Of a stretch of DNA of 64,000 nucleotides, positions 47,949-63,436 are shown in pieces. The stretch comes from a virus, in the IMG/VR virus record IMGVR_UViG_2864926767_000001; one strand, 5' to 3'. The position numbers and the translations under genes are program-made. How positions within the stretch are numbered: position 1 is the stretch's first letter; every line of letters starts with the position of its first letter. The notes under the pieces were generated by a model. That model saw only the letters and a program-made list of their open reading frames with translations. It did not search any database and was not told the origin of the DNA.

Positions 47949-50627
47949 TTATCGGCGTCCTGAGCCTGACCCTGGCCTAGCTGACCCCCTGGCAGAGCCC
48001 CCGGAGGACTTACTGCCGGCTGAGCCGCCAGACGAGGAACCGCTCTTGGAATCCTTGGCATGCTTATCCAAGAATTGCTTACAAGCGGCGTAGCTTTCAA
48101 GCACTTCAGGCCCAGGCTTCTGATCGTCAGCCAGCCTCTCTATGATCTTCTTCGCGAAGTTGATCATCGCCTGCGTCGGCGGATTCTGACCCTTGGCCTT
48201 GTCGTAGGCGGTTTTGTGGGCCTCGATGAAGGCGGATACCTTGGAGCGGTCTTTCTTGTCCTCCTCGCCTATCTTGATCCCCAGGGCTGCCTCGATCTTG
48301 GACACGTAGTCGATCTGCGCGTCACTCGGAGCACCCGGCGCACCGCCGGCCTCCCCAGGTGCCTTACGCTTGATGCCGTGCTCATCCAGGAAGGCCTGGG
48401 CCTTCTTCGGATCAGATAGAGCACCAGACGGAACCTTGATGTTCTTGCGCTTGCAGACCGACTGGATGAGTTCTTTCAGCTTTGGAGTTACGACATCAAG
48501 CTCACGCGGAAGAGGGGCGAGGCCCGCGTCCTTGTACTTGTTGTTCATCCAGTGGATGTAGTTCTCGATCTTCGTGATGGTCGCATCGACGAATTTGGCC
48601 TGGAACTGGAGGGCCTCAGTATCGTCCTCGATTTCCACCAGCTGGGCCAACTGGCCCTCCCACTCTGCTGTGGTTTCGATCCTGTACATCCACTCGTGCC
48701 CGTTGTCGCACTGGTAGCGGATGTACTCATCGCCTTTCGGTTCACAGAAGATGTTCCCCTTGTCGCGCACGTCGATGTAGCCACGGGCACGAAGGTTCGG
48801 CAGAACCGTCTCCCTGGTCGAAGGCGTACCGATCCCCTCGGGCTTGTTAACGCCGTCAGCCAAATAGGCACGCATCACCGGGTCGTCGACATACTTGGCC
48901 GCTTTAAGCAGCACTTCTTCGAAGGAGCCTTCGTTAAAGCGGTTCGGACACTTCGTCTTACTCTCGACCAGCTCGACTGCGGTGAGCGGGACAGGATCGT
49001 TCTTCTCCAGTTTCTGGAGAATGACATCGTCTTTCTTCTTCTCCGGAGGGAAGAAGGCCATGTAGCCAGGATCGATGAGACGGCGGCCCTGAGCTTTAAA
49101 CACGGCATAGTCATGACCGAGCAGATCCTTCGTGGGAACCGCGATGGTGATCGTCTGGGTCGCTACGGTTGCCGGAGGCAGGTGTGCCTGGACGTAGCGT
49201 TTCGCGATCAGCTGGTAAGCAATACGCATGTGCTCGGCTGTGTGCACGATGCGATCCTTTACCTTCATATTCGGTCGCATCGCTGCAAGGGCCGCTGCAT
49301 CGACCTTGCGGTTCGAAGGAATGATCCCCCAGTGCTCAAGCTTCTTGTTGGGCGGCGCATAAGAATCAGGCAAGAAGGGTTTGTACTGCTGATCCTTGCC
49401 ATCGTGGATGGCCATGGCCTTGTTCGCCGCTTCCGTGATTCCGGGTACATCCATCACGTTGTTGAAGCGCGAGTTACGCTCTTCGGGCGCGTAGAAGCTC
49501 TGCGGAATTTCTTTCTTGTCGGTACGCGCGTAAGAGGTGTAGCCCTGCAGATAGAGGTCTTCGAAGACCGCCTGGGCCTGCTCGCCATTGATCTTCGTGG
49601 CCTTGATCAGAAGCGACTTGGCTTCAACCAGGTGGAAGGTGCCATCCGGATTGTCGGACTTGATGGCCTCTTTGTAGTCGATAACGATGGCACGATGGGC
49701 GTTTTCCATGAGGCGACGTTTAAAGTCGTCGACCATGGCTTTATCCGCCCACAGCGGTTCATCCAGCTGCTTTTTCTCAGCGTTACCGCGAGGAACCCAA
49801 AGGACACCCTTGGGCTGGGAGTCGATGATTTCCTGGGTGACTTTAGGGGCGTACTCGATGTGGGTGAGGGGGGTACCCTTGACGTCGAAGTCACCGAAGA
49901 TGTTGAAGAACGGCTGTGCGACGAAGTTCTTGATCTTCTGCTCTTGCAGCCAGATCAGATAGAGGGCGGCGCCCTGAACCCGGCCGCTGGAGACAACCGA
50001 CTCACGCTTATTCCCACGCCCAAGGTAACGACCCATTGCGCCACGGCGGGCCCAGTACGTCATATCCCGAACCAGGTGCATGTAAGCCCGGTCGCAGAGG
50101 CCGCGTGCCTCCGCAGAGCGATACCCTGATTTCTTTACATGACCAGGAAGCAGATTCGTGAAGGCCTTGTCGACCGATACCTTGTCGTAGCCTTCAGAGA
50201 GCCACAGGCGTTCGACCTTCCCCTTGAAATTGAAATGCTCGATGATCGCCCAGCCGATCCACTCACCCTCTCTATCAGGGTCAGTTGCGATAACGACGCT
50301 ATCAGCATCCTTCAGGACGCTGCCGATTCGCTTGAGGCGATCCTGAGAAAGCTCCTTGTTGGAGCCATCCGGTTCTTCAATCACCGGAACGGTCTTCACC
50401 GCTCTTGGAATAGGTGCGAGGGCGAACGGATTTTCCCACCCGAGGCCTGGCGTGATCTCATCCGGATCCAGGTGCCGGGTAAGATGGCCTCGCGCCCATT
50501 GCATGACGTACAGGCGACCTTTGTGCGTACCCTCGTAGCCTCGATTCGTTCTTTGCCAGCCAAGGGCTGCTGCCAGGTCTTTTGCCTGGGGGCCCTTCTC
50601 GCAAACTACTGCTGTGTAAGACGACAT
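47949..50627 (-). CDS. topB: Type IA topoisomerase (TopB/TraE-like) with C-terminal helical repeats
   Basis: CEKG, ARGHL, ATDPDREGE, SSGRVQ, catalytic SYARTD, GIGTPSTR; repeats PSDAQIDY and PTQAMINF. Confidence 0.9.
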   Translation of the reverse strand: MSSYTAVVCEKGPQAKDLAAALGWQRTNRGYEGTHKGRLYVMQWARGHLTRHLDPDEITPGLGWENPFALAPIPRAVKTVPVIEEPDGSNKELSQDRLKRIGSVLKDADSVVIATDPDREGEWIGWAIIEHFNFKGKVERLWLSEGYDKVSVDKAFTNLLPGHVKKSGYRSAEARGLCDRAYMHLVRDMTYWARRGAMGRYLGRGNKRESVVSSGRVQGAALYLIWLQEQKIKNFVAQPFFNIFGDFDVKGTPLTHIEYAPKVTQEIIDSQPKGVLWVPRGNAEKKQLDEPLWADKAMVDDFKRRLMENAHRAIVIDYKEAIKSDNPDGTFHLVEAKSLLIKATKINGEQAQAVFEDLYLQGYTSYARTDKKEIPQSFYAPEERNSRFNNVMDVPGITEAANKAMAIHDGKDQQYKPFLPDSYAPPNKKLEHWGIIPSNRKVDAAALAAMRPNMKVKDRIVHTAEHMRIAYQLIAKRYVQAHLPPATVATQTITIAVPTKDLLGHDYAVFKAQGRRLIDPGYMAFFPPEKKKDDVILQKLEKNDPVPLTAVELVESKTKCPNRFNEGSFEEVLLKAAKYVDDPVMRAYLADGVNKPEGIGTPSTRETVLPNLRARGYIDVRDKGNIFCEPKGDEYIRYQCDNGHEWMYRIETTAEWEGQLAQLVEIEDDTEALQFQAKFVDATITKIENYIHWMNNKYKDAGLAPLPRELDVVTPKLKELIQSVCKRKNIKVPSGALSDPKKAQAFLDEHGIKRKAPGEAGGAPGAPSDAQIDYVSKIEAALGIKIGEEDKKDRSKVSAFIEAHKTAYDKAKGQNPPTQAMINFAKKIIERLADDQKPGPEVLESYAACKQFLDKHAKDSKSGSSSGGSAGSKSSGGSARGSARPGSGSGRR

Positions 50628-51281
50628 TTACTCTATAAACCTCAGCTTCTTCTGTCGAGTGTCTATCGTGATGACCCTCGACTCTGGTTGTGCCCTCAAG
50701 GAAACCGGCGCCTGGGCGGAGTAGGGGCGGGCTACCGCGCCTGGGTCTGCCTCAATCGCCGCTTCGAGAGCAGCAAGCGAAGGAATCGACGTGGCCACAC
50801 GAAGGGAGCGACCCCAGTTCGTGGTGCGCCCCAGCGACTCGCTCTCTCTACCGACGCGGATGCCCTCGACAAGGCGCGAATACGCAGTAACGGCCTTTTC
50901 GAGGTAAGTGCGTCGGACACTCGGGGTTTTCGAGTGGTAATTGCCGATGGCCACCCAAGCCTTGCCCTCGTTGTCCGTCATGTGACGGGAGAGCAGCCAG
51001 GTGCCGGCCATGATGTTCTTGCAGGGGTTGTAGACCAGATCCCGCGCGGTGTACCCGAAACGACGGAAAATATCGACCAGGTGGGTCGTGTTGATCTGCA
51101 TCGGGCCCATGTCGAACGAATTGTCGGTGTTCTTGCGGATCGTGCCGATCTGCCCGCCCTCTACGGCCAGGACAGTCTTGGTCATAATCGGGGCGACATT
51201 CGGGAACTGGGCCTGGGCCACCGCGATGCACTGGTTGATCTGCATCAGGTCGAGCGGGACTTCGGGAGGTAGATCAGCCAC
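50628..51281 (-). CDS. Lytic transglycosylase (SLT; PilT/VirB1-like)
   Basis: AVEGG, DMGPMQIN, PCKNIMAGTWLL, AIGNYHSKTP. Confidence 0.88.
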   Translation of the reverse strand: MADLPPEVPLDLMQINQCIAVAQAQFPNVAPIMTKTVLAVEGGQIGTIRKNTDNSFDMGPMQINTTHLVDIFRRFGYTARDLVYNPCKNIMAGTWLLSRHMTDNEGKAWVAIGNYHSKTPSVRRTYLEKAVTAYSRLVEGIRVGRESESLGRTTNWGRSLRVATSIPSLAALEAAIEADPGAVARPYSAQAPVSLRAQPESRVITIDTRQKKLRFIE

Positions 51282-51780
51282 TGGAGTTACCTTTGGCTGC
51301 CTTCCGGGCGCTCGGCGATCTGGTTTTCACCTTGCTGGAGGACTTCGTACCGGTCTCGTAGATCTCGATCCCATGGATGTCCTTCATCAAGCGCTTTTTC
51401 TGCAGGTACTCGCGGGTGCGGAAGCCTTTGAAGTCCTCAACAACTTCCCGGCCCTTCTCGGTGTACACGAAGTCCGCGATGTAGGTGGAGACCAGGCAGT
51501 CGCCGATCTGAAGGGGATAGCGCACCTGGCGGCGTAGATCACTGATCACCCCGGCGCGCTCGAGCAACTGCAGGTCGAGGAAGCGCTTGTACTCGCCCTT
51601 GGAGTCGAAATACCCCTCAGGCGCATTCACCGGCTCGGCCTTGAACTTGCTCTTGCCCTTTCCACCCTTGCCTTTCTTCTCCTCCGGCCCTGCGGCCGCC
51701 AGCACCTGCCGAAAATCGGCCGCACTGATCCGGGTGACGCTCGCATCGAGCTTCACATTCCGGAAGGAGACCGCTGTCAC
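51274..51780 (-). CDS. DUF1064-family PD-(D/E)xK endonuclease
   Basis: SKFKA, FDSKGE, LRRQVRY, YIADFVY, VVEDFKG, Y..KKRL. Confidence 0.8.
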   Translation of the reverse strand: MTAVSFRNVKLDASVTRISAADFRQVLAAAGPEEKKGKGGKGKSKFKAEPVNAPEGYFDSKGEYKRFLDLQLLERAGVISDLRRQVRYPLQIGDCLVSTYIADFVYTEKGREVVEDFKGFRTREYLQKKRLMKDIHGIEIYETGTKSSSKVKTRSPSARKAAKGNSSG

Positions 51781-52037
51781 TCGTCGAGTTCCCCGAACAT
51801 CGCAGAGCTCACCAGCGGGCGGCCGGCGTTGCGTAGCCTGGCGTTCTCACGGTCTTCCCAGTCCTTGGCGCAGTCTTTGTCGCACCAGCGCTTGGGAGCG
51901 GGCAGGGGGTGTTCGCAGTTGAGGCACTCGCCCGTGTAGGCGGGGCCTTTCTCGCTCTTTCCGCGAGCATTCGCCAGGCTTACGTCGAGAAAAAGTTGCT
52001 CGACGTCGGAAGCCATATCCGATTCGTTTGCCATCAC
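51777..52037 (-). CDS. TraR/DksA-like C4 zinc-finger protein
   Basis: N-terminal NESDMAS helix; CLNC..RWCDKDC. Confidence 0.65.
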   Translation of the reverse strand: MMANESDMASDVEQLFLDVSLANARGKSEKGPAYTGECLNCEHPLPAPKRWCDKDCAKDWEDRENARLRNAGRPLVSSAMFGELDE

Positions 52038-52213
52038 TACAGCCTTGAAACAGAGGGGTTGAACAGCTCAGTCGTGCAATTTATGCAAAAAAGAGAGTGT
52101 GTCCACTCAGTTTTTCATCTAAATTTTGGCGCGTCAATATACGAACAATTGCAGCTCCACGACCGTCGATGCCATGATGGAGGGAGCCAAGGAATCACAT
52201 TTAAGGTGCGCAC

Positions 52214-54355
52214 GTGAGCAAGCCGCAGACCACGCACGAGAAGCTTTTGCAGCTCCCGGAAGAGGAACGCCGGGCTTACTTGCTGTCCGACCTTAACCCC
52301 GAGCAGTACGAGGCCGCGACCACCATTGAGGGCGCGGTGCTCAACCTTGCCCCGCCCGGCGGCGGCAAGACCAAGACCATGACCAGCCGCGCGGCGAACA
52401 TGCTCTTGTCCGGCATTCTGCCGAGCAACCTGCTAATGATGACCTTCACCAACGAAGGGGCCGCCGAGCTGAAGACCCGCCTGGAAAACATGGTGGGGCC
52501 CAATGCCCAGCACATCACCGCCGGCACCTTCCACAGCATCATCTTCCGACACATCCTTCAGAACTACGCCGACCACGAGTACCTGAAGAGCATCGACCTC
52601 AACATGGCCGAGTGCGTCATCCTGGATGACAAGGAGAGCAAGACGCTCTTCGATGAAGCCATCAAGTCCCTGGACGAGACTTCTCAGGAGCTTCTGAAGG
52701 AGTCCGACTGGGCAAAGCGTATACCCAAGGAAATGGCTGCCGCCCGCGCACACGGCAAAGACGTAGAACGCTTCAAGCAGGATATGCTGGGCAATGGCGA
52801 CGAAAACGAGATGCTGTACCGCATCACGGTCGACGTCTGGCGTGCCTACACCAAGCTGTGCAGGGATGCCGGCGGCATCGACTTCGACGACATCCTGGTC
52901 GTAGCGAAGAACCTGCTACAGAAAGACCCGAACGTATCGTTCGAGCTGGCGCAGAAGTGGAAGTACATCATGCTCGACGAGTATCAGGACACTAACCCTG
53001 TCCAGATGAAGATCGTCGACGAGATCGCTCAGCACCACGGCAACCTCTACGCAGTGGGTGACGACAAGCAGTCGATCTATGGTTTCCGTGGTTCGGACAT
53101 CGAAGTGATCATGGGCTTCATCCGTCGCTACCCACACGCCAAGCTCATCGAGATGAACCGGAACTACCGGTCGACGCCGAACATCCTGGCGGCGGCAAAC
53201 GCCCTGGCGGCCTGCATGACCCGGAAGCTCGGAGAGGGCTTCATGGTACCCGGCGATGAAAAGCGCTGGAGGGACACCCAGGGCCAGGAAGTTGCCATGG
53301 TCAGCTTCGAGCGTCAGCAGGATGAAGCGGAGGTCGTCGTTGCTGCGATCAAGCGCGACATCGCTCGTGGCCAGAAACCCAAGGACATTGCCATCCTATA
53401 CCGCTCGAGGACTTGCAAGGACGACATCGAGAAAGAACTGGTCAAGCAAGGCGTCGAGTACCGTATCTCCGGTGACATCAGCTTCTTCCAGCGTGCCGAG
53501 GTCAAGAACGTCGTTGCGCTGCTGCGCACCACTTACCGCCCGTGGGATTCAATGGCAGTTCTGCGCGTGCTGGATAACACCAGCTTCGGAGTATCGGGCA
53601 TGGCCGCCAAGAAGGCCATGAAGCCCAAAGCCGGCGAGAAGGGCAGGACTGCCATGGCCTACCTAGAAGAGTGCGCCACCAAAGTCCGCGCGGACAAAAC
53701 ACCAACGGCCGTCGCCGAGAAGGTCGGCCCGTTCATCAAGTCCATGCGTTCCATTCGCCAACTTGCCGCCCTGGGCGAGGACGTTGAGTACCTCCGGGGT
53801 GCCTTTGAGCGCCTGTGGCAGTACTACATGCTCCCGAACCTGAAGCGCGCGGCTTCCAAAGACGATGACGCCATCGACAGCGCAGTCGAATCGCGCATGC
53901 TGAACGTGCAGCACCTGCTCGACCGCTTCTATGGCGAAGTAGAAAAGGGCCGCAAGCCAGAAGATATCCTGGACGAGCTGTCCTTGTTGGGTGAGGCCAC
54001 CCGCGACAACTCGGCGAACCCAGATGAGTCCATCCAACTGATGACCATGCACGCCTCCAAGGGTAAGGAGTTCCCGCATGTGTACGTGGTGGGCTTCGAC
54101 CGTGACTCGACCCCCGGAGAAGAGCCCTCTGAAGAGGATATGGAGGAAGAGCGCCGGATCGCATTCGTAGGGATCACCCGCGCCATGGAAAAGCTAGTGA
54201 TGACCTACCCCAAGCTCAAGTACAAGCACGGTGGTGAGGTGAAAACTACAGCTTCCCCCTGGGCTATTGAGATTGCGGAGGGCACCGGCAAGCCTATTCA
54301 GAACTGGCGCCGGCCGGCGCCGAAGAGGGAGTCCTCCGGGCCATCGGTCTACTGA
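52214..54355 (+). CDS. uvrD: UvrD/PcrA-like SF1A helicase
   Basis: GGGKT, TFTN, GTFHS, LDEYQDTN, VGDDKQSIYGFRG, NYRST, TMHASKGKEF, FVGITRA. Confidence 0.93.
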   Translation: MSKPQTTHEKLLQLPEEERRAYLLSDLNPEQYEAATTIEGAVLNLAPPGGGKTKTMTSRAANMLLSGILPSNLLMMTFTNEGAAELKTRLENMVGPNAQHITAGTFHSIIFRHILQNYADHEYLKSIDLNMAECVILDDKESKTLFDEAIKSLDETSQELLKESDWAKRIPKEMAAARAHGKDVERFKQDMLGNGDENEMLYRITVDVWRAYTKLCRDAGGIDFDDILVVAKNLLQKDPNVSFELAQKWKYIMLDEYQDTNPVQMKIVDEIAQHHGNLYAVGDDKQSIYGFRGSDIEVIMGFIRRYPHAKLIEMNRNYRSTPNILAAANALAACMTRKLGEGFMVPGDEKRWRDTQGQEVAMVSFERQQDEAEVVVAAIKRDIARGQKPKDIAILYRSRTCKDDIEKELVKQGVEYRISGDISFFQRAEVKNVVALLRTTYRPWDSMAVLRVLDNTSFGVSGMAAKKAMKPKAGEKGRTAMAYLEECATKVRADKTPTAVAEKVGPFIKSMRSIRQLAALGEDVEYLRGAFERLWQYYMLPNLKRAASKDDDAIDSAVESRMLNVQHLLDRFYGEVEKGRKPEDILDELSLLGEATRDNSANPDESIQLMTMHASKGKEFPHVYVVGFDRDSTPGEEPSEEDMEEERRIAFVGITRAMEKLVMTYPKLKYKHGGEVKTTASPWAIEIAEGTGKPIQNWRRPAPKRESSGPSVY

Positions 54356-54455
54356 CGTACCTCAGATCACGGTAACCACACCCCATCGCAAAGAGCCGGA
54401 GACGGCTCTTTCGTTTTGATCCCAACCAGCACTTTCCCTGTAAAGGACGCTTGAA

Positions 54456-54752
54456 ATGCAAAAGAACGACTTGGCTGCGACCCTGGTAGCTCTCAACGAA
54501 CGCGCTCAGGCCACCCGCGATAAGGAGATCAGGCTCAACGCCACTCTGGAAAGCACCCAGGCACAGCTAGCAGCGCTCGAAGACGAGATGATGAAGAAGT
54601 ACGGGACTTCCGACCTGGCCACGCTGCGCCAGATGTTCGAGAAGGCCCGAGACGAAGACTCCCGCGCCATCCAGGACTTCGCGAACACCATCGAGATGCG
54701 CGAAAACCTGTTGAACAAGGTCGCTCAGGATCTCGAAGGCCAACGCAAGTAA
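54456..54752 (+). CDS. Small coiled-coil protein
   Basis: 98 aa, all-helical heptad pattern, AAGGA SD. Confidence 0.75.
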   Translation: MQKNDLAATLVALNERAQATRDKEIRLNATLESTQAQLAALEDEMMKKYGTSDLATLRQMFEKARDEDSRAIQDFANTIEMRENLLNKVAQDLEGQRK

Positions 54753-54766
54753 GCAGGGGACACCCC

Positions 54767-56647
54767 ATGATCAACACCAGGGAACTGGAGCAAAGCGTTC
54801 GCCAGACTGCGATGAAAGAGACGCAGATCGGTGAGCGCTATCGCATTGCCGAGGCCCGGCAACTGCAGCTGTGCCAAGAGATCGAAGACGTAGACGCCAT
54901 GCTGTCGCGAAAGGACGATGTCCTGCGAGCGATCCACCAGGTGACCCTGTCCGCCCAGGCCCGTAACAAGGGGCTTTTCGAGGACATGCTGACCGACCTG
55001 GTCAACACCGTGATGCCAGGCAACGTCGACAAGATCGTCCTCACTTCGCGCATGCGCAACAACAAGGCCAACCTGGACTTCGACGCCATCGTCGGCGGCC
55101 GGCTGCGCAACATCGACAAAGACCTGGGCGGCTCCATCGCCAACCTGACGGCCATGGGCCTGCGCTTCATCGTGCTGGCGCGCCACCCGAACCGACGCGT
55201 GCTGTTCCTGGACGAGTCCGACTGCCACATCAACGAGGCCTACACCTCGGCTTTCGCCGCGTTCATGCAGTACCTGTCGCAGAAGATCGGCATCCAGGTG
55301 GTCTACGTTAGCCACTCAGACCCTCGCCACTTCGCGGGCCATGGCCGCGTCCTACAGCTCAACGTGGTCAACGGTAAGTCCGCATTCAAGACCATCGCGG
55401 AAGAGCCCGAGCCGGATGAGGAGTACGAAGCACCGGAGAGCGCGCTGCGCTACATCCGCCTGCAGAACTACGGCCCTCACGAGAACATCATGGTGGAGCT
55501 GTCCCCGCGCCTGACCATCATCACCGGGGACAACAACAAGGGTAAGAGCAAGTTCATCCAGGCCATGCTCGAGCTGTGCACCAACAGCGGGGAGGAAGGG
55601 CGTATCCGCGACGACATGCCGTACTTCGAGGTTGAGGTCGGCATCGAGGAGGGCATGAGCATCCTCTGGAAGTACGAGCGCAAGGGCAACAAGAAGACCT
55701 CCATGGTGCTTCGCGACGCCAATCTGACAGTGGTTGAAGAGTCTGACTCGGGCACTGGCGTGCCTGAGTGGCTGCACACCTACCTGAGCATGGCTCCGGT
55801 GGAAGGGCAGAACATCAACTTCCAGACCCAGAAGCAGCAGAACTTCATCCTGAACAACGAGATGTTCACCAGCGGCCAGCGCGCCATGCTCCTCCCTTTG
55901 GGGCGTGAATCGCGGGACGTGATGCGCATCAACCAGATGTTCAACGAGAAGGTGACCGAGGCCCGCTCCAAGCGTGTTTCCCTGGAAAAGGAGCTCAACG
56001 TCTACCAAAACCAGCTGGCGATCATGTCTCTGGTGGTTCAGAACCCCTATGACCCACTGCTGATGCAAAGGCAGTGCGCTGAGATTCTCGAGGCCCTGGG
56101 CACCCTGGAGAGCATGGAGGCAGACCTCAAACGCCTCGAAACCCTTCAGTCAAAGGTCACTATCCTCGACGAGGCTGACGGGAAGCTGTCCCGTGTACCT
56201 GCAAACACGGTCAAATTGATGGCCAGTGACGAGCTGGCCACCGGGATCAATCAGATCGAGGTGCTGACCCGGTGTATTGGTGGCCTCAAACAACTGGCGG
56301 AACTCCCAGCAATGCGTGATGCCCCGGTACTTCAGGTGGAATACCGGAACGAGATCGGACAGGCAGGCGCCAAGCTGAAGAAGCTACGCGAGATGGTGTC
56401 CGCGCTGGGCCAGCTGAGGGATCTGAAGCCCGCAGACGTACCCAAGATCACGGACACCTCAGAGCTCCAGGACAGCATTCAGCGCTTGGCGGCCAGCCAT
56501 ACCAGCCTTGAGAAGTCCCGGACGGAGCTCACTGCCTGCCAGGAAGAGATGAAAAGGATCGAGACCCAACGGGCTGAGTTGCATGAAGCCCTGGGCGGCG
56601 TCTGCCCAACCTGCAATGGCCCGTTGAAGGAGCATAGTCATGACTGA
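54767..56647 (+). CDS. Circularly permuted Rad50/SbcC-type ABC ATPase
   Basis: Signature LGGS, Walker B VLFLDES and H-loop VSH come before YIRLQNY and Walker A GDNNKGKS; CPTC hook at the extreme C-terminus. Confidence 0.8.
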   Translation: MINTRELEQSVRQTAMKETQIGERYRIAEARQLQLCQEIEDVDAMLSRKDDVLRAIHQVTLSAQARNKGLFEDMLTDLVNTVMPGNVDKIVLTSRMRNNKANLDFDAIVGGRLRNIDKDLGGSIANLTAMGLRFIVLARHPNRRVLFLDESDCHINEAYTSAFAAFMQYLSQKIGIQVVYVSHSDPRHFAGHGRVLQLNVVNGKSAFKTIAEEPEPDEEYEAPESALRYIRLQNYGPHENIMVELSPRLTIITGDNNKGKSKFIQAMLELCTNSGEEGRIRDDMPYFEVEVGIEEGMSILWKYERKGNKKTSMVLRDANLTVVEESDSGTGVPEWLHTYLSMAPVEGQNINFQTQKQQNFILNNEMFTSGQRAMLLPLGRESRDVMRINQMFNEKVTEARSKRVSLEKELNVYQNQLAIMSLVVQNPYDPLLMQRQCAEILEALGTLESMEADLKRLETLQSKVTILDEADGKLSRVPANTVKLMASDELATGINQIEVLTRCIGGLKQLAELPAMRDAPVLQVEYRNEIGQAGAKLKKLREMVSALGQLRDLKPADVPKITDTSELQDSIQRLAASHTSLEKSRTELTACQEEMKRIETQRAELHEALGGVCPTCNGPLKEHSHD

Positions 56648-57554
56648 AGAAGTCGAAGTTGGCCCAACGGTGGTGCTGGCCAAGACCCGTGGACTGCTGG
56701 TGATCGGCGACCCCCTGCTCGGCGGCGGGCGGCGGATCGGCCGGGTTGATGATGTTTGGGGCTCGGCCCTGGATAAGCTCCGGCAGGCGATTTCCATCGC
56801 CATCGAGCGCAACCTGCAGCCCGTGATCGTTGCTGACCTGCTCCATGAGACCCGTGACATCGGGCAGCTAGTGCCCATCATCGAGATCTTCAAGGACAAG
56901 AAGCCCATCCTGGTTCCCAGGAATTGCCGCTGGGAAGAGCAGAACCAGGGCCATGTCGCCGCCATCCTGGAGAAGGCCAACCTGACCTACATCGCCGGCC
57001 GCGATGCAGACAGGTTCCAGCTAAACCATAGCTCCGGCGGCAAGGCGAAGAAAATGGAGGTGACCTGCCACACCTGCTGGGGTGGGGCAGAGCGCCTAGA
57101 GTTTGGCTCCCGTGCGTTCCTGCGCATCCCGGCAATGAACCTCACCATCGTGCACAGCAACTCTCTACCGCTGGTGGACTCCAGTGACGGCCAGACCCTT
57201 CTGGTAGCCGGCCGACTGCTGCGCCTGGGCCCAAGCGAGGAGAGCCAGAAGGTCTACGTCCATGAGGTAACGGCCGACGGAATAGAGGCAATTCCGCTCG
57301 AACTTACCCCAATTGTGTTCTCGGGCGTATCGAACTCTGCTGAAGCTGCGGTGAACCAGTTGCGCAACGCCTCTCTGTTCGTGGAGATGCTGCGCAAGTC
57401 CACCGAGGACATTGCTGAGGAGAGTGGTCGCGAAAGCCTGCTGGAGCTGATCGACGAGGTCTGCGACTCAAACAAGCACGACGACTACATCCGACAGCTG
57501 CTCCTGCAGCTTGCCAAAGACACGCTTGAGCAGGAAACCAGTCTGAACAGCTGA
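56640..57554 (+). CDS. Degenerate Mre11/SbcD-like metallophosphoesterase
   Basis: LLVIGDPLL..R.DD....LDKL...I.IA....VIVADLLH; overlaps the Rad50-like stop. Confidence 0.65.
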   Translation: MTEEVEVGPTVVLAKTRGLLVIGDPLLGGGRRIGRVDDVWGSALDKLRQAISIAIERNLQPVIVADLLHETRDIGQLVPIIEIFKDKKPILVPRNCRWEEQNQGHVAAILEKANLTYIAGRDADRFQLNHSSGGKAKKMEVTCHTCWGGAERLEFGSRAFLRIPAMNLTIVHSNSLPLVDSSDGQTLLVAGRLLRLGPSEESQKVYVHEVTADGIEAIPLELTPIVFSGVSNSAEAAVNQLRNASLFVEMLRKSTEDIAEESGRESLLELIDEVCDSNKHDDYIRQLLLQLAKDTLEQETSLNS

Positions 57555-57558
57555 AAAG

Positions 57559-57584
57559 AAAAGGGCGCCGGAAGGCGCCCTTCT
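57559..57584. terminator. Intrinsic terminator between convergent genes
   Basis: AAGGGCGCC-GGAA-GGCGCCCTT with A-run on the left. Confidence 0.7.
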
Positions 57585-57600
57585 CAGTAACACCAGGTCT

Positions 57601-60159
57601 TCACGGGCGAGGCGCCGCGTCCCTTTCCAGACCAAGCAACTGAAGGATCGTTTTCACGATCTTTGCGACCATCTCCGCCAACTCTTGGGCAGTTTCCTTA
57701 AGATCGCGAGCCATCTCACCAATGTCGTTCTCGTGAGCAGCTGCGCTGTCGATCACCCCCTTAGATTGCAGGATCTCAGCTCTAGCTCTCTGAAGGGCAT
57801 CGCCAAGCTCACGTGGATACTTGGTAGCAGAGAACTTGGAGACGCCCTTGATCGAGGCATTGAGCGACTTCAATGCATTACCGAAGGTTTCCCAGCGCTC
57901 CTTCTCCATATCGTCAGTGACAACGTGGCCTGGGCGGGCAGGGGCACCAAGGAATGATCTGCAGGTGGCCAGATTGTCTGTGGCAGCTTCGATCCCAGCA
58001 GTGAAGTCGCCCGGCTTCACACGCTTGGTGCTGAGAGAACCCAGCGCAGAGCCTGCAATGCTGGCAACGGCTCCCACGATGGCACCGAACCCTAGGTCGA
58101 TAGCCATGCCACCACCTCCGCCTCCTCCAGGCGATCCATGGTGACGAGAATGTCTGTGTCCCCCACGCTCATGCTCACGTAGGTCATTCATCGCTTTCTT
58201 AGCGCGATCATTGAGCTCAGAGTTAGGGTCGATCTTCGCCTCTTTGGGCGTGCTCGGGCCACGTGGCTTGTTCGGCTGACCAAAGTTGATCCCTGGCTCA
58301 TCCCCCTTCGCGGAAGTTGACGAACCTTGCCCTGGAGCGAATTTTTGGCTGGCACCCGGCGACTTGCCATGGGATTTGGCTCCAGGCCTGTTCTTGTAGC
58401 TCGAGTGTTTGCCGGCGCTGCCGTTGTGCTTTGGCCGACGGTCATCTCGCTCGTTTTTCTGCTCCTGATCTTCAGCATCTCTCTCCGACTGAGACATGTC
58501 CTCTCGCCAGCGTTTACGCTGAGGAGGCTCGCTGCTCAGTTCGGCGGACTCATAGCTGGAGTAGTCCTGAGGGTCACCCTCGATGTGCGGAGGAGGGGCG
58601 TCGTCCGTAGAGCCCTGAGCATCAGATCCAGGACTGCGGTTATCGTGCGGCGCTGAATAGCCATCTTCGATTGCGCTGGCGACATCTGGCGGATAGCCAT
58701 AATCCTCGTAGGCATCGAGGGGAATCTCGTCCATAGGGGGCAGAGCGCCCTCAGGTGCGCCTGAGGCGATATTGTCCATCGCCTCGCCCTGCGGGCCCAG
58801 TTCGGGTGATTCGACGCTGGAAGGTGCCTCCTGGGGCGTTTGTGGAGGTTGCTCGGGAGCTGTCGCCGGCTTATTGCCACGCTGGTTCCTTTCACGGCGC
58901 CTTTTGGCTCGTTCCTCCATGTCACGGTTGAACTTGCCGTTCTTGTCAGCAAGAGCTTGGATAGCATCCAGATCCTTTAGATCGAACTGCTCCACAACAT
59001 AGCCGTTGAGCACCAGGTCGTACTTACCCTGGGCCGTGCTCGAAGGCTGGATTCGGTGAGGAGCGTCCAGCAGCTGCAGCAAGCCGTCATCCAGTTCGGC
59101 CTTCACCGCCAAAACGAAGCGCGCTGGGATGTCTTCACGAGAGAACTTGGCCATCTCGCCACGGTTCTGCTGGCTCAGCGTGTAGTCACGCATGATCCAG
59201 TCGGCAATGAAGTAAGCCCGGTTCCGCATCGTCGTGTGATTGTAAGGGACGTACTGATCCGAACCCTTCGGCCGGCCCTGGTCAGCCAAAGCCTTGTCGT
59301 ATTTCTCCTCGAACATCACGCGGTTGCCCAACAGATCCATGAAACTCTCATCCCACTTCATGTCGAACTGGGGGTTCAGGACGGGATAGGCGGCCGGATC
59401 TTTCGGGGCGTACTTCTCTGCGGCCGCAGCGTAGGCGGCCTTCAGCTCATCTCGCAGGCGCGCCTCTTCGGCCTTGTTGGCCTGGAACTCAGGGAAATGA
59501 GCCTCCACATCAGCCTGGGTAACGTCGTTTCTGTCCTTCCCCTGGGAGTCAAAAGCCTCAAGAACCTCAACCGTCTTGGCTTGGCGTTCAGCGACAAGCT
59601 TAGCAATCTGCTCCTGGTGAGCAGGGATGTCCTCGGGCTGCGCCATAAGCTGCCCGATCAGATCACGAGTCTTTTCCTCGTGTTTGAAGCCAACCCAGTG
59701 CTTGGGGTTGATGAACATCGGGAGCTCTTTGACCTTCTGCACCACCTGGAAGTGGGTGCCTTGCTCAAGGTCATAAACCCCTGTAACCCCGGTAAAGGCC
59801 AGGAATTCCTTGAGCTTGAGCAGGTCGATACCCTCGTCGCTGCTCTGCATGTGGTGCAGGTATTGCCCCATCTGAGAGACGAGGTGGTCGGGGACTCCGG
59901 AGCAGCGAAGCGCATCGCGCACGGCCGAAACGCTGATTTCCAGCGGGTCGCGACCTCCAGTGTCCTCTACCTCGGTGTGGTACTCGCCGGACTCGTAGTC
60001 GAAGAATTTAACAACCCTGGTGTCTTGCTGCGCGATGAACTCGCGCATGAAGGCGTCGACGTAGGGGCTGCCCTTTAGCAAGTCGTGGAAGTAGTAGGGC
60101 ACGCCGAGGTCGTAGGACTTCGGCAGCGTCCAGGATTTTTCTGGGGATTGCTGGCTCAT
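57601..60159 (-). CDS. Large hypothetical protein: globular N-terminus, disordered middle, Gly-rich hydrophobic segment, helical C-terminus
   Basis: AAGGAG SD before ATG 60159; about 852 aa. Confidence 0.8.
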   Translation of the reverse strand: MSQQSPEKSWTLPKSYDLGVPYYFHDLLKGSPYVDAFMREFIAQQDTRVVKFFDYESGEYHTEVEDTGGRDPLEISVSAVRDALRCSGVPDHLVSQMGQYLHHMQSSDEGIDLLKLKEFLAFTGVTGVYDLEQGTHFQVVQKVKELPMFINPKHWVGFKHEEKTRDLIGQLMAQPEDIPAHQEQIAKLVAERQAKTVEVLEAFDSQGKDRNDVTQADVEAHFPEFQANKAEEARLRDELKAAYAAAAEKYAPKDPAAYPVLNPQFDMKWDESFMDLLGNRVMFEEKYDKALADQGRPKGSDQYVPYNHTTMRNRAYFIADWIMRDYTLSQQNRGEMAKFSREDIPARFVLAVKAELDDGLLQLLDAPHRIQPSSTAQGKYDLVLNGYVVEQFDLKDLDAIQALADKNGKFNRDMEERAKRRRERNQRGNKPATAPEQPPQTPQEAPSSVESPELGPQGEAMDNIASGAPEGALPPMDEIPLDAYEDYGYPPDVASAIEDGYSAPHDNRSPGSDAQGSTDDAPPPHIEGDPQDYSSYESAELSSEPPQRKRWREDMSQSERDAEDQEQKNERDDRRPKHNGSAGKHSSYKNRPGAKSHGKSPGASQKFAPGQGSSTSAKGDEPGINFGQPNKPRGPSTPKEAKIDPNSELNDRAKKAMNDLREHERGGHRHSRHHGSPGGGGGGGMAIDLGFGAIVGAVASIAGSALGSLSTKRVKPGDFTAGIEAATDNLATCRSFLGAPARPGHVVTDDMEKERWETFGNALKSLNASIKGVSKFSATKYPRELGDALQRARAEILQSKGVIDSAAAHENDIGEMARDLKETAQELAEMVAKIVKTILQLLGLERDAAPRP

Positions 60160-60209
60160 GGGCTCTCCTTTCATAACCTATTGTTCGGCCGGAGAGCCGG
60201 CCGGGGCAA

Positions 60210-61343
60210 TCAATGTTGCAGCTGGTCGAGACGGACTGTGGCCTTCTGAACAAGCATTTGCTCAATGAGAAGGGTCGACTTAAGCCTCTCAATCGCAAGC
60301 TGCATGTCCACACCGGCCATGAGCAGGTCATCCCTGGCGTTCTCAGCGGGGGAGGTCGCAGAGTTCAAAGCCACTTTGTGGATGAACGACTCACCATCGG
60401 TAGAAGGACTGCCGTCCTCATCCAAGTACATCTCCGCTGGTAGGGTCTGAAGCATCAGTTTGGAGGGTTGCCCATCCGCAACGGCGGTTCTTAGCGCAAT
60501 CTGACGCCCCACCATCGCTGTGACCAAACCCCTGGCATTCTTCTTCCTGAGCTCAGAGACAATTTCAGCCTCCGTCGTGGGATCGTTCTTGCTCAAGTTG
60601 ATGTACGGGCGATAGGTTATCAGCGCCTGGTTTACCGCCATCTGCAACTCTTCGGTGCTGTAGATGGGGGAGGCATTCTGCGAGAGGAACAGCAAGGATG
60701 CATCATCGGCCAGAGGTTGCTTTCCAGCATCTTCCCAGGCCTTGTGCTGGTCGTATGCGGCCAACATCCTTTCGTTGTATGTGTCGATCAGCTTCTCAGC
60801 CTCAGTTTTCTCCCTTTTTCCGCCGGCAGGAGCAGACGAACCGTCATCAGCTGCCTGCAGCCCTACAGACGAGAGCTGGCCGTCGAGCCGGCTCTTGATC
60901 TTCAAGTACATGTCGGAGATGCCCGTAGGAGCGACCTGGATAGCGTCGTTCACTGCGGTGCCGATAACATCGTCGTTACAGAGCTGATCTGAAAGCGCCT
61001 GCTGCACGTACACCTTCTCGCATGCATCCTGCACCGGGCGCTGCCGGCTCTGCTGCTCCAGGCCTGTAACCTCCTGGAGAACGCCGTTCAGTCGCGCGAC
61101 GGTGTTAGCGGCACCGTTATTGATGGTGTCGATGCTGGAGTCGAAGTATTGCTTCTTGGCGTCCAACATCTCCTGAATGTAGAGGTTCTCTTTCATCCAC
61201 TCCATGCTGCGCTTGATGTCGCTTGTGACTGCCTGCTTCAGCTTTTCGAAGTCCGAGACCAGGAGGATGTAAGCGTTGGCCATAGGCACAGCACCCAGCG
61301 CAACCACCAGGGCCAATGCAGATAGCGCATGCTTCCTTTTCAT
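60210..61343 (-). CDS. Exported helical protein, possibly conjugative (TraW/IcmX/VirB5-like)
   Basis: Signal peptide ending ANA; helical body with a Cys pair; function is inferred. Confidence 0.5.
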   Translation of the reverse strand: MKRKHALSALALVVALGAVPMANAYILLVSDFEKLKQAVTSDIKRSMEWMKENLYIQEMLDAKKQYFDSSIDTINNGAANTVARLNGVLQEVTGLEQQSRQRPVQDACEKVYVQQALSDQLCNDDVIGTAVNDAIQVAPTGISDMYLKIKSRLDGQLSSVGLQAADDGSSAPAGGKREKTEAEKLIDTYNERMLAAYDQHKAWEDAGKQPLADDASLLFLSQNASPIYSTEELQMAVNQALITYRPYINLSKNDPTTEAEIVSELRKKNARGLVTAMVGRQIALRTAVADGQPSKLMLQTLPAEMYLDEDGSPSTDGESFIHKVALNSATSPAENARDDLLMAGVDMQLAIERLKSTLLIEQMLVQKATVRLDQLQH

Positions 61344-62752
61344 CGATAATCCTCCGGTTTCCCATCATTCTTCGCCGCGATCATCGCGTCAGAGATGCCC
61401 CAGACCCATGACATGTGCCGGCGTGCACGCGGCAGGATCTCTTTCAAGTCCGGCTCAATGTCGATCAGCGGGTCTTCGAGGGTATCCAGCCTGTCCTTGA
61501 AAGAGCGCTCGAAGAGCGAAAACTCCATCGTCGGGTGCTTGATCGTGTACTCCTCGCGCTGTGCGACGCTCATCGCCGAAAGATCGTCGATCAACCGCTC
61601 ACCGGCCTCAGACCAACTCTCTCCCATCAGCTTGTCCAGGCCCTTGAGGTACGCCGACCTCCAACGAAGTGTCTCCACCTGGCCCAACTTGGGCACCTTC
61701 GCGTTATCGGCGTAGGCCTTAGCCATGGTGCGCATACGTACCAGCAAGTCTTCAAGGGCTTTCCCCGAGTACCCCATGTCGAGCTCAGCAATGACGCTCT
61801 CCAGCAGGGGGAGGGGCATCTGGGGATCATGCTCGAGGTAATCCAGCTCTGGGAGCTGCTCACAGAGGGCTTCAACGTAGGCCCTGGAGGCCAGCTGTAG
61901 GGTCGGATTGAGCAGGCTCTTGAACAGCAGTTCCTTGTCAGTGATGTCGACCTGGCGCGACCAGGTGAACGCTACCTCTTTGGAAAGGGCCAGGGCGGCC
62001 TTCTGAAGGGCCTGGACGACCTCATGAGGCATCCACACACCCCAGAGGCCATCGAGATCCTGGAAGGCCGTCAGGGCGCCGTTGTAGAGCTCCAGTTTGA
62101 CCGTGAGCATCGAGTCGCTGGTGGCTTCCTCCAGGCGGTACTCGTTGAACTCTTCGGTCTCGAGCAACCATTGCTTGGAAACCTCGACCACACCCTCGAG
62201 CTGAGCGAAGCTGGCGCGGTCGTACATCTTGGAGAGGTTGCCACCCACCAGACGCCGCCACAGGCGCGCCATAACGTCAGCATTCGGGGCGCCGTTGACG
62301 TCCAGGACGAGGTCGATCAGCGTAAGGTGGTCTTTGCACATGACCGAGACTTTCGCCTTCAGCTCTTCCTTGGACAGGCCAGGGTTGTTCGAAATGACGT
62401 TGAGGTAGATACCGACGGCCTCGCGCAGGGCCTGTACATAGGCCTGCAGGGCCTTGTAGAAGACGAAGGACTTTGGCTGGCTCGACGTTGTCGGTGGTTT
62501 CTTTGCTGGCGCCACAGGCGGAGAAGGGGCCTTGGGCGGCGCAGAGGTGGAGCGAGGTGCGTAGTGGTTCGGCGGAGTGCCCGGTGGATTCGGGTTCTTA
62601 CGCATGGCCGGCGGCGTAGCGTCATCAAGCCAGGCGCGATGGCGCGCGGACATCTCCTGGATGTCATTGCCAAGCTCGAAGTCTTCATCGTCCTCTTCCA
62701 GGAGATCCTTCAACGACCGGCCGGTGCCGGCGTGGCCTTTTACTTCAGACAT
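61340..62752 (-). CDS. Hypothetical protein
   Basis: 470 aa ORF, Pro-rich N-terminus, GGAG SD, coupled to the next gene. Confidence 0.75.
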   Translation of the reverse strand: MSEVKGHAGTGRSLKDLLEEDDEDFELGNDIQEMSARHRAWLDDATPPAMRKNPNPPGTPPNHYAPRSTSAPPKAPSPPVAPAKKPPTTSSQPKSFVFYKALQAYVQALREAVGIYLNVISNNPGLSKEELKAKVSVMCKDHLTLIDLVLDVNGAPNADVMARLWRRLVGGNLSKMYDRASFAQLEGVVEVSKQWLLETEEFNEYRLEEATSDSMLTVKLELYNGALTAFQDLDGLWGVWMPHEVVQALQKAALALSKEVAFTWSRQVDITDKELLFKSLLNPTLQLASRAYVEALCEQLPELDYLEHDPQMPLPLLESVIAELDMGYSGKALEDLLVRMRTMAKAYADNAKVPKLGQVETLRWRSAYLKGLDKLMGESWSEAGERLIDDLSAMSVAQREEYTIKHPTMEFSLFERSFKDRLDTLEDPLIDIEPDLKEILPRARRHMSWVWGISDAMIAAKNDGKPEDYR

Positions 62753-62767
62753 GAATCGGGATCTCCG

Positions 62768-63436
62768 TTAGAAGCCTTGAGAGTATTCGTCGTCGCGCGC
62801 CGTGCGAGGCTGCTGAAGCAGCTCCTCGGCAGCTCGGCGGGCTTTGTTAAGCGCATTGATGATGTCTTCTTCAGTGGCCCAGCCAAGAAGCTCGCTCAGC
62901 CCCAGATGACCTCCTGTGAGCAAAGGGAACCCACTTTCGTTTTCCCATTCTGGGGTGGTTTTGAAGAGTGTATGAACTTTCCAATTTGGAGCTTTTTCTT
63001 TCAGCAGGGAGTTTTCGTGATCGATCTCGAAAACATCAGTAACGGCAACTTCCATAACGAGGCCTCTGAGGCCTTTTGTCAGAACTTCAAGATCACCCAC
63101 TTTAGCTTCCAGCATCGATGCAATTACTGGATCTCGGCGCTGCTCATCGGAGAGGTGGCGGGCAAGGACGATCTCGATGCCTGAAACCCTGGAGTTATTC
63201 GCAACGTAAACCACGTCAGAGAACAGGCGGAAGCCGAATAGGCTGAGAGCCAGCTCCTCCGCGCGGTGCGCCAGGCGCGGAAGGGACACGTAAGGGTGCA
63301 ATGCAGCTGATAGTGGCCAGGTATCTCCCTTGAGGGAGACCTCGAACTCGCCAAGTCCAAGACTTCCTAGAGTTTCTTCAAAAGAATTCTGGATGTCATA
63401 AACGTCTTTCAGCTTAAACGAATCTTCGTTATACAT
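62768..63436 (-). CDS. Hypothetical protein
   Basis: 222 aa ORF co-oriented with the downstream operon. Confidence 0.7.
   Translation of the reverse strand: MYNEDSFKLKDVYDIQNSFEETLGSLGLGEFEVSLKGDTWPLSAALHPYVSLPRLAHRAEELALSLFGFRLFSDVVYVANNSRVSGIEIVLARHLSDEQRRDPVIASMLEAKVGDLEVLTKGLRGLVMEVAVTDVFEIDHENSLLKEKAPNWKVHTLFKTTPEWENESGFPLLTGGHLGLSELLGWATEEDIINALNKARRAAEELLQQPRTARDDEYSQGF

Follow-up and report, generated by a model that had tools for sequence, protein, structure and literature searches.

Models of Rad50, SbcC and SMC proteins assume a single chain that runs up an arm, turns at the hook or hinge and comes back to complete the ATPase head. A three-gene module in the IMG/VR virus record IMGVR_UViG_2864926767_000001 raises the question of whether a useful machine of this type needs such a continuous, folded-back chain. 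The module lies at positions 54,456 to 57,554 of the 64,000-nucleotide stretch that was analysed (the window), and, unless stated otherwise, the features described below are on the plus strand. It consists of P0001 (54456..54752), a clean open reading frame of 98 aa; P0002 (54767..56647, 626 aa), a circularly permuted ATP-binding cassette (ABC) ATPase resembling Rad50/SbcC; and P0003 (56640..57554, 304 aa), a protein of Mre11/SbcD fold with degenerate metal-ligand motifs. In this arrangement the chain is cut exactly at the hook, the head is fused in swapped order, and part of the return strand is apparently a free 98-aa subunit. An earlier note on this DNA, written from its letters alone, had named these three parts and had taken them for a candidate new SMC-like machine. 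The parts were borne out by our analysis, but that label was too strong, and the module is better described as a rearranged member of the Mre11-Rad50/SbcCD kind. Taken as a whole explanation, it is probable that the locus encodes a three-subunit Mre11-Rad50 (SbcCD) variant that serves as a non-cutting clamp or tether in the repair or maintenance of its replicon.

P0002 is a natural circular permutant of a Rad50-type ATPase. Its parts follow each other in the order return-coil base, C-terminal ABC half (C-half), linker, N-terminal ABC half (N-half), arm and, at the very end of the chain, CxxC with HxH. The N-terminal helix, the head-proximal part of the return coil, covers residues 4-82 (54776..55012) and is divided into helices 4-47 and 49-82 in the AlphaFold2 model. 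It is followed by the C-half (residues 89-211, 55031..55399), with the GGS signature at 121-123, Walker B at 145-150, the D-loop aspartate D152 and the H-loop histidine H183. An acidic linker (residues 212-228, 55400..55450) joins the C-half to the N-half. Its sequence, AEEPEPDEEYEAPES, corresponds to residues 211-225, and the region is variable and gapped in the alignment of P0002 homologues. The N-half (residues 229-378, 55451..55900) contains Walker A (254-261) and the Q-loop glutamine Q355. The outgoing helical arm of about 230 residues (380-608, 55904..56590) was modelled as five helices (380-425, 430-474, 488-511, 524-552 and 565-608) separated by three low-confidence breaks; the per-residue confidence score of the model (pLDDT) was below 50 at residues 476-486 and 516-524, and the arm differs in length between homologues. 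The chain ends with the zinc motif CPTC-x6-HSH (residues 613-625, 56603..56641). The motifs on which the earlier note had relied were all located where it had placed them: LGGS at residues 120-123, VLFLDES at nucleotide 55199, VSH at residues 181-183, YIRLQNY at residues 229-235, GDNNKGKS at nucleotide 55526 and CPTC at nucleotide 56603. It had overlooked the near-invariant HxH after CPTC.

The permuted order of the halves was obtained with domain libraries, with profiles of PDB sequences and with alignments of the AlphaFold2 model. In Pfam, the starts of AAA_23, AAA_15 and SMC_N, which represent the Walker A side, matched P0002 residues 227-460, and the end of AAA_21 (positions 252-300 of 304, from Walker B to the H-loop) matched residues 136-185, so that the domain order expected by the earlier note was found. 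The PADLOC and NCBIfam models gave the same half order. Two PHROGs families matched P0002, one for each half: a 211-position 'ATPase' family spans residues 5-207 end to end and an 'exonuclease' family spans residues 226-502. This was an early indication that the two halves can occur as proteins of their own. In the PDB-sequence profile search, positions 224-440 matched residues 4-224 of M. jannaschii Rad50 with an E-value of 1.5e-8. A profile of P0002 residues 1-212 matched, over its positions 20-209, the C-terminal head halves of SMC1 and Rad50, coil base included. The AlphaFold2 model, built from 67 sequences, had a mean pLDDT of 84.6 and a predicted template-modelling score (pTM) of 0.60. 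With VIA-align, residues 225-378 were placed on residues 1-163 of P. furiosus Rad50 (Z 10.9, root-mean-square deviation (rmsd) 2.8, 145 residues), and residues 8-82 together with 380-470 were aligned to antiparallel SMC arms. In Foldseek, the top matches of the model were Rad50 C-half chains (Rad50 chain B). The pLDDT of the model and the conservation of the whole motif set suggest that both halves form one ABC head. The permuted architecture of the module can be stated with high confidence.

The same order is kept throughout the family. P0002 homologues (n = 69) were 600-700 aa long, were covered over their full length and showed 21-52% identity. In the alignment of 67 sequences, G121, G122, D149, E150, D152, H183, G254, G259, K260, Q355, C613 and C616 were invariant, and H623 and H625 were at least 90% conserved. 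We searched a profile of the C-half only against 1.84 billion protein cluster representatives and obtained 4065 matches at E<=1e-3 and 442 at E<=1e-30. Among the best 150 matches, about 140 were 590-720 aa in length and had the C-half at residues 1-210; a few were standalone proteins of 205-265 aa. Of 135 long representatives, 127 showed the permuted order and a terminal CxxC in simple motif tests, with a Walker B no later than residue 220, a Walker A beyond residue 190 and a CxxC among the last 60 residues. A CxxC in this terminal stretch was present in 133, and about half had [H/C]xH behind it. Faulty assembly, a frameshift or decay of the gene could also have produced the fused order, and the earlier note had allowed for the first two. 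This reading has practically no chance of being correct: nothing was found in its favour, and it is contradicted by the open frame, by a copy of P0002 99% identical in another data set, by near-identical short contigs in independent soil data sets, by more than 120 divergent representatives with the same order and by the invariance of the catalytic ATPase residues. A megablast search of the 6-kb region against phage and plasmid collections gave no match. A rare form, a homologue of 772 aa with a proline-rich tail beyond the CxxC, was seen on an Acidiphilium plasmid (L098:4872-7190).

Besides the permuted form, the survey of homologous loci revealed relatives in which the parts are split. Two Desulfovibrionaceae genomes (L089 and L090) carry the same parts in four genes and in canonical order. 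The first encodes the N-half with the arm and ends with GACPLC...HEH (452 aa), the second a Metallophos protein with intact motifs, the third a small protein with an EYGTADP turn (104 aa) and the fourth the C-half (243 aa), which starts 4 nt after the small gene and is 33% identical to P0002 residues 69-190. In L090, the end of the C-half protein and the start of the N-half protein flank the position of the linker. In Bacillus phage 0305phi8-36 (L006), gp8 combines a nuclease, the N-half, the arm and CPTC, gp7 is the small protein of 92 aa and gp5 is the C-half; a further protein, gp6 (238 aa), is encoded between gp7 and gp5. In these colinear, unpermuted forms the small gene stands 3' of the hook-ended gene. 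It also stands 5' of the C-half gene, directly in the Desulfovibrionaceae and in the window, and with gp6 in between in the phage. Yoshida et al. (2011; PMC3175470) listed gp8 of phage 0305phi8-36 as an Mre11/Rad50 fusion with one P-loop segment missing. The segment is missing because the C-half is encoded separately as gp5, three genes downstream.

The split systems share with the window the N-half, the arm, the CPLC..HEH end, the G-T/Y-D turn of the small protein, the C-half (33% identical) with its GGS and DE-x-DCW motifs, and the Metallophos partner. They differ from it in having separate genes in the order N ... small ... C and an intact nuclease, whereas the window has a fused, permuted head. 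The window module fits a hook-terminated family defined by a CxxC-ended ATPase, a two-helix partner with a G-T/S-D turn, an Mre11-type partner and a C-half with GGS and DE-x-D. P0002 would have arisen from the split form in two steps: the gene order shifted cyclically, and the C-half was then fused to the N-half, with the acidic linker between them. Microbacterium phage Magritte was considered as another full split set and was rejected: its gene 2 is a standalone C-half, and genes 1, 3 and 4 are unrelated. The small-protein profile did not match Magritte gene 1 significantly, and the sequence of gene 4 resembles that of a clamp-loader-type ATPase.

P0001 was predicted to be all-helical, with two helices of about 43 residues each and a Y/F-G-T/S-D turn between them. 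A word-based homologue search with P0001 returned only P0001 itself, and its relatives were collected by gene position in the ATPase loci. In the alignment of 23 such positional homologues, G50 of the turn was invariant, and the profile of the family matched gp7 of phage 0305phi8-36 with an E-value of 9e-7. In about 78 of 86 loci the small gene directly precedes the ATPase gene, and the separate helical subunit postulated in the earlier note is therefore a conserved partner in most of them. It is 93-112 aa long in most loci, and the ATPase 600-740 aa; longer small reading frames at some loci are a matter of start-codon calls. The gene order of the split relatives and the bookkeeping of lengths led us to propose that P0001 is the missing return coil on the distal arm. 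The outgoing arm has about 189 helical residues, and about 167 are available for the return, 88 or so from P0001 and 79 or so from residues 4-82 of P0002. The position of the small gene between the hook-ended piece and the C-half in the split relatives supports this role without proving it. A P0001 C-terminus placed beside residue 1 of P0002 would also be in line with the adjacency of the two genes. Some small subunits are extended by acidic tails. The small subunit on Alteromonas pKD01 (L097:4371-4901) is 176 aa long, with a long acidic C-terminal tail after the two-helix core, and phage gp7 (L006:5310-5588) has a poly-Asp/Glu end after the conserved two-helix core. The tails suggest an extra binding function, possibly DNA mimicry.

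P0003 had no Pfam match, Metallophos included, and its fold was assigned from an AlphaFold2 model with a pLDDT of 77. The top 37 rows of the VIA-align search were all Mre11/SbcD (Z 15.1-11.7, about 190-200 residues, rmsd 3.2-4), and other phosphoesterases, such as purple acid phosphatase and LpxH, had Z values of at most 11.4. Foldseek matches were almost all Mre11. The predicted model thus has the calcineurin-like phosphoesterase fold of the Mre11 type. Its metal site is degenerate, in agreement with the earlier note: DPL (56709-56717), AD (56832-56837) and RNCR (56919-56930) are found in place of DPH, GD and GNHD of its own intact orthologues. P0003 also lacks GHxH, whereas 70 related partners retain GDPH, GDLF, GNHD, THHD and GHxH. 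The homologues aligned with the P0003 motifs are called Metallophos by Pfam. Three C-terminal helices (231-261, 266-277 and 282-303, within residues 231-303, 57330-57548) were predicted at low pLDDT; their alignment with the Rad50-binding region of Mre11, taken from complex structures, is loose and has a high rmsd.

The loss of the ligands follows a taxonomic line. The Mre11 motifs are retained in all alphaproteobacterial partners (Microvirga, Methylobacterium, Mesorhizobium and Acidiphilium) and in those of Variovorax, the metagenomic loci L003 and L005 and the Desulfovibrionaceae, where the Variovorax and Acidiphilium proteins were read through motifs I-III only. The metal-site histidines are gone in the window and in the gammaproteobacterial plasmids, that is, Pseudomonas plasmids including pMPPla107, Vibrio megaplasmids, and Aeromonas and Alteromonas plasmids. 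All members of this clade, from four genera, have other residues in place of the histidines of motifs I, III, IV and V/VI, while D24, D66 and usually N95 are kept. Within the clade, P0003 proteins are still 45-51% identical, which points to a retained non-catalytic role. In a quick maximum-likelihood tree of the ATPase, rooted at midpoint only and with long Aeromonas and Alteromonas branches, the nine gammaproteobacterial rows formed one side of a branch with 99% support in the Shimodaira-Hasegawa-like approximate likelihood-ratio test (SH-aLRT). A single loss of the nuclease ligands is therefore possible. The clade amounts to a second natural experiment, in which the Mre11 partner has been kept for structure after the catalytic histidines were lost.

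The surviving ligands are one argument for a complex that is still a nuclease, either through residual activity of P0003 or through a nuclease acting in trans, and that would process hairpins or ends as a divergent SbcCD. The near-invariance of D24, D66 and N95 in the gammaproteobacterial clade, the fully intact metal sites of orthologous systems in other classes and the repair helicases adjacent to the module all fit such activity. The replacement of the histidines of four motif groups throughout the clade does not, and general library scans of the three module proteins detected no other nuclease domain. We consider a cutting complex improbable.

In the mechanism that we propose instead, a non-cutting clamp or tether, P0001 would lie antiparallel on the distal arm, with its helix 1 against residues 565-608, its turn at the 553-564 break and its helix 2 against residues of about 488-552. 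Its C-terminus would meet the N-terminus of P0002, and the return strand would be complete. The Mre11-like dimer would dock on the head via its C-terminal helices. As in SbcCD, two heads would close on DNA ends, hairpins or branched DNA when ATP binds. A complex that does not cut would then act as a clamp or tether gated by ATP, or would be a platform from which DNA is passed to the UvrD-like helicase and topoisomerase III. The role served would be the replication-associated repair or the maintenance of a very large plasmid. Function as an ATP-gated DNA clamp, tether or recruitment platform is a plausible but tentative part of this scheme. We are a little more hesitant still about its extension to the whole gammaproteobacterial megaplasmid clade (Pseudomonas, Vibrio, Aeromonas and Alteromonas), in which a Rad50 machine might have been turned into a non-cutting clamp or tether, with an arm made of separate polypeptides and open at the zinc tip, that very large plasmids need for replication-coupled repair, segregation or end protection. 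If the non-cutting clamp is true, a Rad50-type machine can be useful without nuclease activity and without a continuous arm that folds back.

Several observations weigh against this mechanism. The assembly of one head, within a chain or between two chains, we infer only from motif conservation and high pLDDT. The signature of P0002 is GGS without the canonical serine before GG, and ATP-driven engagement of the heads may differ from the canonical one. The HxH after CPTC provides four possible zinc ligands on a single chain. To judge from these motifs, CxxC and HxH could make a complete zinc site on one chain, and in that case the tip need not dimerise as the Rad50 hook does. The D24, D66 and N95 that survive in P0003 might allow residual or altered metal chemistry. 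As for P0001, the lengths of the small protein and of the ATPase arm show no proportional relation, and pairing over the full length is unsupported; a small protein of 93-112 aa is unable to pair with the whole distal arm in every relative, and its invariant turn would also suit a hairpin adaptor.

The last points lead to the alternative that P0001 is not a return coil but an adaptor or regulator that might, for example, cap the zinc tip, bridge two arms or connect to Mre11, with the distal arm folded on itself. This would account for a family whose length does not scale with that of the arm and for the invariant FGTD turn, which points to a helical hairpin and not to a single long helix. Also in its favour are the distal arm of P0002, already split into three short helices in the AlphaFold2 model, and the acidic tail on the small protein in Alteromonas and the phage. 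It leaves aside that in the colinear split systems the small gene comes after the hook-ended piece and before the C-half, where a distal return-coil fragment is expected, and that the outgoing and returning helical residues roughly balance. An adaptor role is rather unlikely, but less so than the other alternatives.

We infer that the module descends from Mre11-Rad50/SbcCD and works like it. The systems compared were those of P. furiosus and M. jannaschii, E. coli SbcCD and phage T4 gp46/gp47. P0002 has the Walker A, Q-loop, signature-like GG, Walker B, D-loop and H-loop of these proteins, as well as a long helical arm with CPxC at its tip, and P0003 is the adjacent, translationally coupled partner of Mre11 fold with C-terminal helices. 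Unlike them, P0002 is permuted and ends at the zinc motif, has the extra HxH and lacks the signature serine. Part of the return strand is presumably the separate P0001, and in the gammaproteobacterial clade the Mre11-like subunit is without its histidine ligands. P0002 also falls below all curated SbcC/Rad50 equivalog cut-offs, as the best NCBIfam Rad50 models gave 15-21 bits against cut-offs of 700-1087. We did not find a published description of a permuted or hook-terminated split Rad50/SbcC; the ABC ATPase classification of Krishnan et al. (2020) was outside the search. The permuted design occurs in hundreds of protein clusters beside unfused relatives, which makes them natural constructs for questions of arm continuity, hook and head topology in DNA clamping.

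The triad is kept as a unit in loci L002, L003, L005, L008-L088 and L096-L098. In about 86 loci from alpha-, beta- and gammaproteobacteria, the small and the third genes adjoin the ATPase in nearly all cases, the exceptions being contig ends and artefacts of start-codon calling. The metagenomic loci L002, L003 and L005 (24-28% identity) have a triad of a 101-108-aa protein, the ATPase and a 294-355-aa protein, and the third protein is called Metallophos by Pfam in L003 and L005. Triad loci are mostly on replicons of 250 kb to 1.9 Mb, and the 21 plasmid records in which a homologue occurs all range in size from 250 kb to 1.3 Mb. The order topoisomerase III, SLT, UvrD, triad is common to the window, the 972-kb pMPPla107, a 925-kb Vibrio vulnificus plasmid and a metagenomic contig, and the UvrD-like upstream neighbour recurs in L002, pMPPla107 and the Vibrio plasmid. 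Elsewhere the triad adjoins RecD2 and a HARP protein, RecJ and ParAB, or RecQ and RdgC. The triad is part of the backbone conserved in pMPPla107-type and Vibrio megaplasmids and may therefore bear on how very large plasmids are maintained. The host genome also has canonical sbcD and sbcC genes on contig C13, and a genome-wide TIGR00618 search matched only that sbcC. The plasmid-type module is therefore an addition.

The genomic context also bears on a role in anti-phage or anti-plasmid defence of Lamassu or Wadjet type, or as a decoy against host SbcCD or Wadjet. PADLOC matched LmuB over P0002 residues 228-623 (E 1.7e-14) and, more weakly, PtuA, GajA and JetC. The N-terminal ABC half is indeed common to P0002 and these proteins, and LmuB and JetC have a coiled coil too, but the matches are restricted to the generic head and coil regions. 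The half order differs, and no LmuA/LmuC, JetABD or effector partner was found in Pfam and PADLOC scans. In favour of such a role, the module is on a mobile replicon and none of the 24 same-genus genomes searched carries it; a search of 16 same-order genomes gave no P0002 homologue either. However, the module sits by replication and repair genes in a syntenic Pseudomonas/Vibrio megaplasmid backbone and not in a variable island, and in the sampled Microvirga genomes orthologues with intact nuclease motifs are near-universal. Defence or a decoy function is very unlikely. The repair and replication neighbours and the large secondary replicons favour repair or maintenance over a defence island or decoy.

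Dozens of Microvirga species genomes carry the permuted triad with intact nuclease motifs (L014-L088 comprise Microvirga and Methylobacterium). It is chromosomal in strain VF16, and Microvirga sp. M2 carries it on a 1.94-Mb plasmid. In many assemblies no more than about 2.2-2.4 kb separate the triad from a contig end, a hint of a repeat or a hard-to-assemble element alongside.

The window corresponds to 133-197 kb of contig C1 in a 7.58-Mb genome. It is part of a large accessory replicon, probably a Pseudomonas megaplasmid, and the replicon is related in gene order to pMPPla107-type Pseudomonas megaplasmids. Neighbours of the module identified with Pfam were DnaG primase, a DEAD-box helicase, topoisomerase III, an SLT transglycosylase, DUF1064 and UvrD. 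The last of these, P0004 (52214..54355), is a UvrD/PcrA-type SF1 helicase (UvrD-helicase 3.9e-59, UvrD_C 1.2e-50). Between it and the triad, a consensus scan located a terminator-like hairpin (54390..54411), in which a 9-bp stem encloses a 4-nt loop and is followed by a T-rich tail; the module is therefore probably transcribed as a unit of its own. P0001 is preceded, at a distance of 8 nt, by an AAGGA ribosome-binding site, and the P0002 start by an AGGGGA site. The gap from the end of P0001 to the start of P0002 is 14 nt, and the start of P0003 overlaps the stop of P0002 by 8 nt.

The syntenic block (window 47949-63436; L002, L008 and L009) consists of an EAL protein in some cases, topoisomerase III, SLT, sometimes DUF1064, UvrD and the triad, and then continues with three or four large minus-strand genes without Pfam domains. 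Its conservation across Pseudomonas, Vibrio and metagenomic replicons suggests a megaplasmid ancestry shared across genera. In the window these are four successive minus-strand genes at 57601-63436 (857, 377, 470 and 222 aa), none with a significant Pfam domain, and genes of comparable size and position also follow the triad in L002, L009 and pMPPla107.

Three public sequencing runs contained short, near-identical contigs that cover parts of the window stretch. Those from a soil metatranscriptome library lie over 55486-55768, 56631-56826 and 57441-57650. One of them crosses the P0002/P0003 overlap, although a contig from an RNA library is not proof of transcription. A soil metagenome carries further near-identical short contigs over parts of the window, and together these hint at soil as a habitat of the replicon or of a close relative.

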